A stretch of 64,000 bases of DNA from Podarcis gaigeae (Eukaryota), in assembly GCA_964106915.2 (NCBI GenBank), contig OZ066916.1; one strand, 5' to 3'. The notes beneath the pieces were generated by a model that was not told the origin of the DNA, made no database searches, and saw nothing but the letters and a program-made list of their open reading frames with translations. Within the stretch, counting starts at the first letter, position 1, and every line of letters starts with the position of its first letter. This document shows, piece after piece, positions 48,801 to 54,383 of this stretch. The translations under genes and the position numbers were made by a program.

Positions 48801-50992
48801 TATGTGGAATGGCACGAGTACATGGAATGGGGAGGGAAATGCCCATCAATCTCCCCACCCCCCAAAAAGCTCAACAACTCTGGTCAGTCCAATGGATAGA
48901 TCACTGCCAGTTTTTTTTTATAGTGGGAGTAGATTGCAGTCTCTTGGAAGTATTACTGCATCCCAACAGCACAAGGATTCCCTTGAGGACAATAGGATCT
49001 CTCCCCCTTCTCTTTTTCCCTGACCCTGTGCCCTCCCCAAATGTGATTCAGGGGGTTGGGAGAACAGATATAAGGGGGAGAGAGTTGAAGTTCCATTGCA
49101 CAAGCAAAAACCCTTTCACTCACAGAGCTTCTTTATTAGCACATCCAACCCCAAAAATGCAATCCTAACCACATTTACTAGGGAATAACCCCCACTTACT
49201 TTTCAACAGGCATGCACTGATTGCACAGGGCACATATTAAGGAGTAGATCTACTTCTAAGGAATGGTGCATTTTTATTTATTTTTAAAAGGAAACCAATT
49301 GCCTCCTTTGTTTTAATAGGGCCCTTGGCTACCTTTACCGTCCCTAAAAGCAAAACATGGAATTAATACACATAATCTAAGTTGGAAAGAGTGGCTACAA
49401 TTTAAATGGTGAGTTGTCTGTGCCCTTGTGAACAGCCTGCTCTCCTTTCCTGCCTGCTTTATCACTGCAATCGTAAGTGCTTGAATATGACTACTCCCGC
49501 TTAGAACATCCTGCGCTTGGCAGGTTGCCCAAGGTTAAAGGTCTCTCTTGCATGTTGGTTGCTCAACCCAAAGCATTTCCCCTCTTCTTTCTCCTCTAGG
49601 AGATCTTAAAAAACTAGAAATCCATATAATCCAGTACTTCTAGTAGAGCAACATATTCTTAGGCCCTTTTCTGATGATAGCTGAAAAGACCCTTTAGTGT
49701 TGTACTAGGGTTAGGGATGATGAAGGGGTGAGAAAAGGTGCCCTAAACATAGTCTACCTCCCTTTTCCCCTGACTGGATTGCCGCGCCCAGTGGTCGTAA
49801 AAGACAATTGAGTTTTGGAACATGGAATATATGGACTTTGTCAGATAACACAGACAGTGAGCGTCCTGAACGCAGAACTGCCATCATTGCAAGAGAGCAG
49901 TGATGCTTTAACATCAATGTTGCAGTGCTTCAAGAGACTCGAAGAGCAGGCGAGGGACAACTAAAGGAAGAATTCTTCTGGAAAGGTCTATCTGAACAAG
50001 CACATCAAATACATGGGGTAGGCTTCACTATCAAAAACGACCTTGTGAAGCTCCTGTCAGAAGTCCCTACTGGCATTAATGAGGGACTCTCAACCCTTTG
50101 AATAAAGCTCACAAAACCAACAGGCTACTATTATAAGCGGCACCAACACTGGATGCCAATGAAGACATTAAAGAAAAATTTTACTCTCAGCTGGATACCG
50201 TCCTATCAGAGATTCCTAAGGAAGATAAAATTATCCTCCTGGGTGATTTTAATGCAAGAGTTGGGCGAGATTTCGATCTGTGGCCTGGGACTATTGGGAA
50301 AGAAGGACTTGATAACAGCAACCAGAACGGAATCTTACTTTTGACAATATGTGCAGCTCACAACCTTGTTATTACCAACACACTTTTTCAACAGAAAAAT
50401 AAATTTAAAACTTCATAGAGGCACCCTTGGTCAAACCACTGGCACCTCTTAGACTATGTTATTGTCTGTGCTAAAGATCGCTATGATGTGCTCCTTACCA
50501 GAGCTATGATGAGCGCCGACGACTAATACGCTCCACGATGGCTATCAAGATTATACCTCAATGCAGGCTTCAAGGAAGGAAACCAAGGCGCAAAATGAAC
50601 ACTCAAGCCCTTCAAGATCCCATTAAGTGGGATTGCTTCCAAATGACTCTTAAGGGCCATCTGCTTTCAGAATTCCCTGATAACATCGAGGAACACTGGA
50701 CCAAGCTAAAAACATCCATTAATGCAGCCTGTGAACAAACTATTGGATACCAAACCAAGAAACACCAGGACTGGTTTGATGAGAATGACAGTGAGATTCA
50801 ATGCATGATTGACAAGAAAAGGAAGGGTTTCAGATCTGGCAAAGAGATACTGTGCCACTAAGAAAAAAACCTTTGCCAACACTAAGGCTGAGGTTCAAAG
50901 AAGATCCAGAGAACTAAAAAACACCTGGTGGATAAAAAAAAGCTCAAGAGATCCAGCACTTAGCCAACACTCATGATGCACAGAGTTTTTTT

Positions 50993-52068
50993 GGGGGGGC
51001 ACTTGGGGCGCATTGGAAGATGGCCGACAATAACATCTCTCCGACCCACATGAGGTAATTAAGAGGCTGTGATGGGAGTAAGCAGCCTCCCTGCCCCCCC
51101 CAAGTGAGTGGGGGGAACTGCCCTTGCCTGCTGTGCCCTATACCACCCCCGAACTCGAGGGTGTGGGGGCACTAGGCAGAAAGCCCTTGTGCGGACTTCG
51201 GCTCTCCTGGACGCTGTCTCTGATTCGCGCCTCTAGCTGCAGCAACTTCAAAAGAAACAATTAGGTGGAAGCAAATGCACATATTTCAAGGCAGAATGGG
51301 GAGTAAAGACTGCTAATTGAAGAGATCTCTGAGAAAGAAGACGGGTCGGATAAACAGGAATATATCATGAGAAGACACACCAAGGCTCGGTATGTTGACA
51401 ACGGGACTGGATGGGGGGGGGACTTTCCTTTCCTTTCTTAATGTGATTAACCTAGAATCCCCCCCCAAGTCAGAAATGCCGCTTAAATGACCTAAGCTGA
51501 TGATCTAAGGAGATCGTGGAAAGTTTAAGAGCTTTGGGATGACGCGGTAAAAAAACAGCGTCGCCATTTTGGCAAGTTCTGTCAAAAGACTTATGTCTGG
51601 GAGGAGGAACAGATCTGTTTTCACATTGCGGGCGAGCCTCCTCAGAGGACTAAAGAAGGCGACAGATTTGCGAAGATTAATGATGGAAAGAGTGCTTTTA
51701 TTTATGGAAGTGATGATATATGGAAACCATCTTGATATGGTGATTGGACAAACGGAAAAATTCACACAGGATTATAACTGGTGTTTACCTGCTTAAGGAG
51801 ATTATCAGAAGAGATCACAAAGAAAAAAGAAAAATATACGAATAAGATGAGACGTAGGAACAGCAAGATAGGACTGGATAGAAATATGAACATTATTTGG
51901 ACAGATTTGTGGATATTAACACAGCAGCAAGAAGATGATTGGAATCCCCTTTGGAACTTGAAATATGGGTACCCCCAACAAAAATTTAAAATTTGGCTCT
52001 GTAATTCGGAATTTATGTGATGTGATTTGATTTGATTGGTCAGTTAATAAAAATTATTTTTTAAAAAA
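50993..52068 (+). mobile_element. 1.08-kb non-autonomous L1-like (HAL1-like) retroelement inserted in the RTE
   Basis: 20/21-bp TSD ATGATGCACAGAG(G)TTTTTTT (50973-50992, 52069-52089); G-run start and AAGATGGCCG YY1 motif at 51017; AATAAA 52046 and A-rich tail; short frameshifted ORF 51593-52020. Confidence 0.75.
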
Positions 52069-52101
52069 ATGATGCACAGAGGTTTTTTTAAGCCACAAAG
52101 A

Positions 52102-52343
52102 AGAGTTTGGATTTGATATTCCACTTTATCACTACCCGAAGGAATCTCAAAGCAGTTAACATTCTTCTTTCCCTTCCTCCCCCACAACAAACACTCTGTG
52201 AGGTGAGTGGGGCTGAGAGACTTCAGAGAAGTAGGACTAGCCCAAGGTCATCTAGCAGCTGCATGTGGAGGAGTGGAGACGCGAACACGGTTCTCCAGAT
52301 TACGAGTTTGCCGCTCTTAACCACTACATCACACTGGCTCTCA
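52102..52343 (-). mobile_element. tRNA-derived SINE (same family as 45550-45800) nested in the RTE
   Basis: Reverse-complement similarity to 45550-45800; 8-bp TSD CACAAAGA (52094-52101, 52344-52351). Confidence 0.88.
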
Positions 52344-54383
52344 CACAAAGACCATCTGTTGGCCAATAACTCATGGCATGTGCCCCCTATGCTCAGCAGA
52401 CAGTATCACACTTCTAAAAGATAAAGAAGCTATTGCACTGTGGTGGAAAGAACATTACCAACATCTCCTTAACCACAACTCCCCCGTAGCTGCTGAGGTC
52501 CTCTCACAAATTCTGCAAAAACAAGTTAGAGATGAGCTTGCAGTATCTCCAAATCTGGGAAAGTTGTGTACAGCTATTAACCAAATAAAAAATGACAAAG
52601 TCAGTGGACCTGATGGGATACCTGCTGAAATCTTCAAAGTGGGTGGAATTAAACTTACACAACAACTTCACAAGCTCTTCGAAAAAATCTGGGAAAGAGA
52701 AGAAATCCCAGCAGACTTTAGGGATGCCAAAATTATCAATCTCTTAAAAAAAGGTGACAAAACTGATTATGGAAGGCATCTTTCTATTAGCTGCGGCTGG
52801 CAAAATTCTTGCAAGGATTTTAGCAAACTGTCTCGTAACAATATCTGAGGTGACCCTTCCTGAATCCCAAAGTGGTTTTTGGCCCTCTAGGGGGACAGTG
52901 GACATGATTTTCACCGCTCAACAGCTTCAAGAAAAATGCAGAGAGCAAAACCAACCCCTGTATATAGCGTTTATTGACCTGACTAAGGCTTTCAACACTG
53001 TAAATCGTAATGCCCTGTGGACTGTCCTTCTGAAAATTGGCTGCCCAGATAAATTTGTAAACATCATTCAGCTCCTCCATGATAATATGACAGCAACAAT
53101 TGCAGATAACAATGTCTCTCAAAGTGAAGCATTCACAGTAGGATCAGGTGTTAAACAGGGCTGTGTTATTGTCCCAACTCTATTCATTATTTTCATTGCC
53201 ATGATCCTACACTTTGTTGAAGGTAAACTCCCCACCGGAGTAGAAATCATGTATCAAACAGATGGAAAGCTCTTCAATCTGAGCAGGCTGAAAGCAAAGA
53301 GTAAGGTTACCATAACTTCCGTCATAGAGCTTCAGTATGCTGATGACAATGTAGTGTGTGCACGCTCAGAGGATGACCTCCAAACCATCCTAAATATCTT
53401 TGCAGAAGCTTACATTTAACATCCAAAACACCAAAGTGCTGCACCAACAAGTACAAAATAACCCCTCTGCAGCGCCACAAATCCAATGGTGTAACGTTGG
53501 AAAATGTCGATCAGTTCTCCTACCTAGGCAGTTATCTTTCCACAAGGGCCAACATTGATGCCAAAATCCGGCATTGCCTGAGCTCTGCGAGTGTGGCTTT
53601 CTCCCGATTGAAGCGCAGAGTGTTTGAGGACTGGGACATTCACAAGGAAACCAAAATGCTTGTTTACAAAGCTATTGTACTACCAACCTTACTATATGCT
53701 TGTAGGCGAACTAATATCAGTGTACTGGAAGAAGCAAAGATCACCAGTGTCGAAGCAATGATTCTTCAACATCAGCTTTGTTGGACTGGTCATGTTGTGC
53801 GCATGCCTTATGATCATCTTCCAAAGCAACTACTCTATTCCGAACTAAAAAATGGAAAGCGTAGTGCTGGTGGTCAACAAAAGAGGTTTAAAGACTGTCT
53901 CAAGGCAAATCTTTAAAAATGTTGTATAAATACTGACAACTGGGAAACACTTGCCTGTGAGCGCTCTAGTTGAAGAACAGCCTTTACCAAAGGTGTCATG
54001 AGCTTTGAAGACACTTGAACTCAGGATGTAATGGAGAAACATGCTAGGAGGAAGGCACGCTTGGCAAATCCACACCGTGATCAACTCCCGCCAATGTCCC
54101 CACTGTGGAAGGACGTGTGGATCCAGAATTGGTCTCCACAGTCACTTACAGACTCATTGTTAAAACCATGTTTATGGAAGACAATCTTACTCGGCTATGA
54201 ATGAGTGCCAAAGAGGTCTGTCCAGTAAATTTGGTTCTTATGATTTTTTTTTTAAAAAAATTGCCCTGGATGTGAATAAATACCCAAGAATGAAATACAT
54301 AAGCAGCACGAGCTGGCACCTGATAAAAGTGGATCTTCTTCCATTGACGATATGAGTTTTAGTTCATGGACTAAATTTGCACA

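Follow-up and report, generated by a model that had tools for sequence, protein, structure and literature searches.

A large non-coding retroposon family with L1-type insertion marks and a conserved, likely structured 5' head in a lizard genome

In mammals, the L1 proteins act preferentially on the RNA that encodes them, so that a non-coding passenger can persist only by overcoming this preference. The known L1 passengers are mostly Pol III-transcribed SINEs, the ORF1-coding HAL1s and, in primates, SVA and LAVA. SINEs and SVA resemble the elements described here (family 1) in being non-coding passengers of the LINE machinery, with structured heads in the case of SINEs; family 1 is several times as long as a usual SINE, and the VNTR and composite parts that are features of SVA were not noticed in it. 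A SINE was rejected on the basis of Rfam and ARAGORN searches, which revealed no tRNA, 7SL, 5S or snRNA head in family 1, and a solo LTR or ERV (TG...CA ends, fixed target site duplication, TSD, of 4-6 bp) was discarded in view of its G-run start, A-tail and TSDs of 10-25 bp.

HAL1 is, like family 1, non-autonomous, L1-dependent and shorter than L1, but it encodes ORF1p, whereas family 1 has neither a conserved ORF nor ORF1p likeness (PMC5753468, PMC5786205). RIME, NARTc, Bov-A and RTESINE share with family 1 the lack of ORFs and the conservation of both the 5' and the 3' end (PMC5786205). ORF-less bipartite LINEs are thought to be transcribed by Pol II and moved in trans; a 2018 survey reports them from RTE, Ingi, Vingi and R2 alone and not from L1, and each matches at its two ends a parent LINE that is known (PMC5786205). 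For family 1, no such parent was found among the loci sampled. The Sadhu elements of Arabidopsis are non-coding, LTR-less, A-tailed and TSD-flanked with divergent subfamilies, as family 1 is; they resemble neither tRNA nor 5S RNA, lack Pol III boxes, share a conserved motif at the 5' end and have target sites consistent with LINE mobilisation (PMC2848041). However, they are plant elements known from 39 related sequences, as opposed to more than 1,100 copies of family 1, with another 5' motif and TSDs of 7-16 rather than a median of 18 bp, and the likeness implies no homology (PMC2848041). As for the 5' end, CAAGATGGC is the YY1 motif found at mammalian L1 starts, the Anolis L1 clades beginning with other motifs (PMC5381506). 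Mammalian L1s resemble family 1 in having, close to the start, a G-run and then the YY1 core AAGATGGC (PMC5381506, PMC2912911), the match extending to only eight of the nine bases of CAAGATGGC, a motif too short to show descent. The sampled L1s with a visible 5' end, and a second short family (family 2), have a start of the Anolis clade-1 type, from which that of family 1 differs.

The window, namely the whole 64,000-nt stretch of Podarcis gaigeae DNA that was analysed, carries one copy of family 1, a non-coding, non-autonomous family of elements of approximately 1.13 kb. No description of it was found in the literature searched, and a repeat library may contain it as an unnamed entry. Family 1 is real and abundant, is probably undescribed, as the earlier note on this DNA had suggested, and is likely a non-coding L1 passenger with a conserved head that is predicted to fold. 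The reading that we prefer, with a probability of about 75%, is that it is an ORF-less, likely Pol II-transcribed L1 parasite with a G-run/YY1 start, a folded head, AATAAA-dependent polyadenylation and L1 ORF2p acting in trans.

The window insertion and its family

The window copy is a full-length member of lineage B1 (50993..52068, 1,076 nt; this and all the features of the insertion are on the plus strand) set between direct repeats of 20 nt (50973..50992) and 21 nt (52069..52089, with one extra G), confirming the self-contained, TSD-flanked unit of the earlier note. It splits a decayed LINE containing endonuclease and RT remnants (49760..54210, plus strand, ends approximate), which we take to be an RTE; the RT/endonuclease-bearing LINE sequence picks up again across the duplication, on either side of the insert, as expected from the initial description of an interrupted element. 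The same host LINE also harbours on the minus strand, 12 nt past the right TSD, a tRNA-type SINE with box A/B-like motifs and an 8-nt duplication (window 52101-52342), presumably Squam3. The window copy differs from the B1 lineage consensus by 26 substitutions over 1,071 aligned bases (2.4%), and 41 nt present in other copies are missing from it near 51506.

The element opens with the G-run and AAGATGGCCG, present as described; the G-run and the YY1-type motif AAGATGGC (50993..51027) form a likely start-site element and a candidate site of YY1 binding. The conserved head, with four predicted hairpins and compensatory changes in hairpins 2-4 (50995..51200), is followed by an A-rich middle that drifts fast (51201..51950), by a conserved 3' block with TGATT repeats and without covarying structure (51951..52045) and by AATAAA, an AT spacer, a T-run and an A-run (52046..52068), laid out as in the L1 tails of this genome. 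The AATAAA at 52046, the A-rich tail and the stop codon 25 nt upstream, at 52020, had been correctly identified, and no RT or endonuclease was found within the element. The leader had been described as GC- and CpG-rich for approximately 600 nt; it is GC-rich only over its first ~250 nt (61% GC, CpG observed/expected 0.43), GC being 43% in the next 350 nt. Similarly, the second YY1-like motif, CGCCATTTT, is present in the window, but just 42 of the 144 copies have it unaltered, whereas the first motif is found in 140 of them, within the first 45 nt.

A DNA search of the genome yielded 1,826 candidates; 36 of the best 40, which were scored, were near full length, and 28 of 30 fetched copies had their own TSD (12-23 bp) and a common start point, well beyond what chance would give; the element is not single-copy. 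Exact 5' motifs in the genome were 817 (control, 0) and exact 3' motifs 1,111 (control, 3). Since the two patterns recover 71/84 and 70/84 test copies, respectively, roughly 970 and 1,330 ends are estimated, with ~70% of the copies retaining the 5' end; the motif counts are lower bounds because lineage F, which accounts for 622 additional candidates, has other end sequences. Thus, family 1 is a large, old family of more than a thousand copies. The non-autonomous non-LTR family that had been proposed from the single copy, with many members of the same length and insertion marks of the L1 type, does exist.

For the alignment, 144 full-length copies (107 + 37) were used, with the exclusion of interrupted, deleted and truncated ones; the median length was 1,129 nt (107 copies). 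At least six lineages were distinguished, A-E in a ladder-like arrangement and F found later, all of about 1.1-1.2 kb. Members are ~2-6% from their own lineage consensus, and copies of different lineages are ~70-90% alike; both ends are conserved, while identity in the middle drops to 30-60% between distant lineages. The ends are fixed, the tails are A-rich and the copies are dispersed in unrelated flanks. Every lineage has kept a length of about 1.1-1.2 kb, even though some shorter copies, which carry deletions, also have TSDs. Internally deleted copies (about 80-900 nt) are L074, L249, L258, L303, L304, L305 and L231, several of them with TSDs, each deletion being seen in one copy only. Splicing was rejected as the source of the short variants L303-L305 (junction overlap of 3-6 nt, no recurring splice sign), and no recurring skip was seen in RNA reads over family 1 copies. 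At G000:C8:101.80-101.89 Mb (L239-L241, L351, L352, L355) three repeated blocks each contain a lineage-C copy beside a lineage-F copy; these are duplicated segments and, therefore, copy counts are slightly above the number of insertion events.

The first 210 nt fold better than shuffled sequences in the consensuses of all six lineages (z from −2.9 to −5.4; 30 shuffles each) and, with z of −2.2, in the window copy. RNAalifold, applied to 32 copies chosen for diversity, returned 40 pairs, six of which with changes on both sides. The edited model comprises 44 pairs in four hairpins, with 93% of the cells paired and two-sided changes in 12/44 pairs, compared with 6.3 in a column-swap null that preserves relatedness (P = 0.002, an optimistic value because the model was drawn in part from the tested alignment). 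G-U cells (87) outnumber A-C cells (35), which favours the sense strand. When lineage F (19 copies, outside model building) was folded alone, hairpins 3 and 4 were recovered, the former with a different sequence, while hairpins 1 and 2 were not. Three other stretches of the element also fold strongly, in single lineages, and none of 12 pairs covaried in the 3' block. Rfam gave no match at gathering score, and the covariance model of the head found no match to L1 or family-2 5' ends among 33 sources. Overall, these results make it likely that the head is a structured RNA. Two independent insertions, one in L263 and one in L070 and L307, which are a single locus, hit the AT-rich linker that follows hairpin 1 (element positions 56-72), a possible endonuclease hot spot.

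Origin and reading frames

The search for a parent element took several routes. None of 80 5'-motif loci runs into an ORF1, none of 40 3'-motif loci has the motif as the tail of an ORF2, and in 32 L1 loci of two ORF2 groups, which are a subset of the L1 families, only the tail (~25 nt) is common with family 1. The leader shares with mammalian L1s the G-run/YY1-type start. No match to an L1 5' UTR was obtained with the head model in the 25 of the 32 loci searched. Lineage F seemed to match L1 L319 over 78 nt of its 3' UTR, which was dismissed as low complexity (z of 2.1 after tail removal), and the apparent element-L1 chimeras L236/L306, L263 and L265 turned out to be L1s inserted inside the element; L068 is a possible element-L1 chimera. 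About 20 L1 matches that are nearly identical, the majority having an intact ORF2 frame of 1,248 aa, lie together at G000:C8:12.3-13.6 Mb, probably as a result of a segmental or tandem expansion.

A first guess is that family 1 originated from an ancient L1 that lost both ORFs. It may have begun, instead, as a processed host non-coding RNA or as the 5' region of a housekeeping gene with a YY1 start, which then became a self-propagating retroposon. The failure to find an L1 parent among the sampled loci would fit such a host origin, from which the structured head could also derive, and YY1-type starts are common in host genes. We nevertheless regard it as unlikely, although the best placed among the alternatives: Rfam gave no match at gathering score, no tRNA was detected by ARAGORN, no source gene was present among the fetched matches (best 40 of each search), and the pre-tail layout and the A-rich sense strand resemble L1 ends.

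The origin from a small coding element, HAL1-like or like family 2, whose ORF decayed to leave the 3' half as a relic gene, is a little less probable still; it concerns the origin of family 1 and is compatible with the L1-parasite reading. A short ORF-bearing family is indeed present in the same genome, and one projected frame is interrupted by few stops in lineages A, B, D and E (not C), gives Nei-Gojobori dN/dS values of 0.52-0.56 for A versus B1 and is open for 158 codons in one copy, L032 (AlphaFold of this one sequence was uninformative, pLDDT 37). However, the frame was picked because lineage B has it open, the ratios obtained in other frames are similar (0.22-1.46), and changes at codon positions 1/2/3 amount to 1.76/1.93/1.91 (parsimony over 25 lineage rows), with no third-position excess (P = 0.58) and a rate as fast as that of the leader. 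Applied to family 2 as a positive control, this test does pick up the ORF (P = 0.023). Moreover, no likeness to L1 ORF1p, ORF2p or the family-2 protein was found for family 1, nor an RT or endonuclease of its own in copies and consensuses. The 12 lineage consensuses share no ORF, contrary to what had been anticipated, their longest ATG ORFs (39-101 aa) being at different positions, and 71 of the 85 distinct indels with respect to B1 in the proposed coding region shift the frame, the other 14 being multiples of three. On the sequences compared, family 1 encodes no conserved protein.

Mobilisation and transcription

A TSD was found in 123/144 copies (median 18, range 10-25 bp) and in seven of 12 full L1s, a small comparison set with a median of 17 and the same site bias. 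T at position −2 in 58/123 copies and purines at +1 to +4 in 95-101 of 123 define TT/AAAA-like sites; position −1 is biased by the method, which shifts the beginning of the TSD leftwards across any shared As. Of the 40 loci selected on their 3' motif, 16 were 5'-truncated with a TSD of at least 16 bp and one, L297, was 5'-inverted with a 19-bp TSD. 5'-truncated and 5'-inverted copies are among the three insertion forms of human L1 (PMC2912911); inversion alone is no proof of L1 and may not be specific for it here. The last 23-30 nt of family 1 match local L1 3' ends at 84-93%, over a short stretch that is rich in A and T; only 14/32 L1 rows (duplicates included) conform to a strict tail pattern, as compared with 95/123 family 1 copies. 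Taken together, TSDs, TT/AAAA-like sites, 5' truncation, inversion and the L1-shared tail point to mobilisation by L1 in trans. The location of the window copy in an RTE-like element might call for a non-L1 LINE, for example RTE/BovB, as the driver, but this seems improbable: the A-tail after AATAAA, the 18-bp median TSD and the TT/AAAA-like sites match those of local L1s, copies are scattered in unrelated flanks and there is no covarying 3' stem-loop.

Transcription was assessed from raw runs X23 and X24, which are of the same study, are assigned to the organism by label and may not be the window's own. In X23, 608 reads cover the whole window copy with a ratio of about 11:1 in favour of one strand, which in X24 is only 1.5:1; over a young lineage-A copy both runs lean to the strand that is dominant on the window copy. 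The dominant strand corresponds to sense RNA in most stranded libraries. Many 5' reads enter unrelated flanks and RNA starts did not accumulate at the 5' end of the element; therefore, host read-through can explain the signal. We infer an internal promoter in family 1, and internal T-runs and AATAAA argue for Pol II and against Pol III.

According to the proposed L1-parasite mechanism, the G-run/YY1-type motif would fix the Pol II start site, and the predicted hairpin head would be kept as an RNA structure that may aid RNA production, survival or pick-up by the L1 ribonucleoprotein. AATAAA would end the transcript, with polyadenylation after it, and L1 ORF2p would nick a TT/AAAA-like site, prime on the A-tail and reverse-transcribe the RNA in trans. 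Few source copies acting in succession could generate the ladder-like lineages, and the short length would ensure a high share of complete copies, which would retain the promoter and could found new lineages. A broader and more tentative proposal, which we hold as rather doubtful, is that an undescribed class of parasites, long, ORF-less and transcribed by Pol II, lives on lizard L1s, and that the hairpin head is a cis signal enabling their non-coding RNA to compete for L1 proteins; family 1 would be the first such lineage derived from L1, with the length held near 1.1-1.2 kb and the middle free to drift. Having persisted through six or more lineages in which the RNA head is compensated, family 1 provides a natural series for finding the RNA features that recruit L1 in trans. 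It may, moreover, have spread candidate YY1 start sites, about a thousand of them, over the genome, and its insertions could serve as markers in lizard phylogeny.

Proposed micro-ORF1 and a second, ORF-bearing family

The earlier note had joined two ORFs of the window copy, by restoring one base, into a 142-aa protein with an ORF1p-like C-terminus. Both frames are open as noticed (51551-51796 and 51778-52020), and the region (51593..52020) is best described as chance open frames of lineage B, unconserved across lineages. The repair is not borne out by the 144 copies, none of which has the single added base, 87 being identical to the window at the junction and only five having a net +1 shift of any kind near it. 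No full-length copy encodes 142 aa, the longest ATG ORF being of 135 aa with a different start. No third-position excess was detected in the two frames (ORFa, P = 0.87; ORFb, P = 0.84), and no homologue of ORF 51778-52017 was found in protein databases or in the PDB. The joined frame, when compared with a profile built from 10 L1 ORF1 proteins of this lizard genome, scored a probability of 0.4% (control, 99.4%). The window ORFs had no Pfam match, a null result that is uninformative because real lizard ORF1p is also without an L1 Pfam match and the genome search with PF02994 matched nowhere. Thus, that family 1 still encodes a micro-ORF1 of ~140 aa aiding the packaging of its RNA is largely refuted and very improbable, in spite of the window frames of 81 and 80 codons and of ATG ORFs of at least 110 aa in 15/144 copies, given that the 14 of these in the youngest lineage start elsewhere, that their end frames differ with an A/T run, and that the frame, besides its shifting indels and poor ORF1p score, is not common to the lineages and carries no codon-position signal.

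The ORF-bearing mini-element so pictured exists as a separate family. Family 2 (L161:175-1790, minus strand; L187:517-2441; L196:516-2446) yielded 1,033 candidates in G000, the best 150 of which were scored. It is a HAL1-like element with an unknown protein, of ~1.9 kb, with an L1 clade-1-type start, an L1-type tail, a median TSD of 18 bp and no RT, and its 5' stretch is 69-74% like a local L1 5' UTR. Its one ORF, of 212 aa, is open in most of the 150 scored copies, with dN/dS of 0.24-0.66 and a significant third-position excess (P = 0.023). The protein gave a probability of 0.1% with the ORF1p profile, no Pfam match and no usable match in an atlas search, its AlphaFold model was uninformative (pLDDT 35), and full-length relatives at 41-49% identity were found elsewhere. 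The 3' ends of L1, family 1 and family 2 are alike in that AATAAA is followed by a short AT spacer, in many cases by a T-run, and then by the A-run; a T-run ahead of the A-tail may characterize the 3' ends of lizard L1s. In both short families 5'-inverted copies were observed (family 2, L188:516-1375; family 1, L297:2654-3092), as twin priming predicts.
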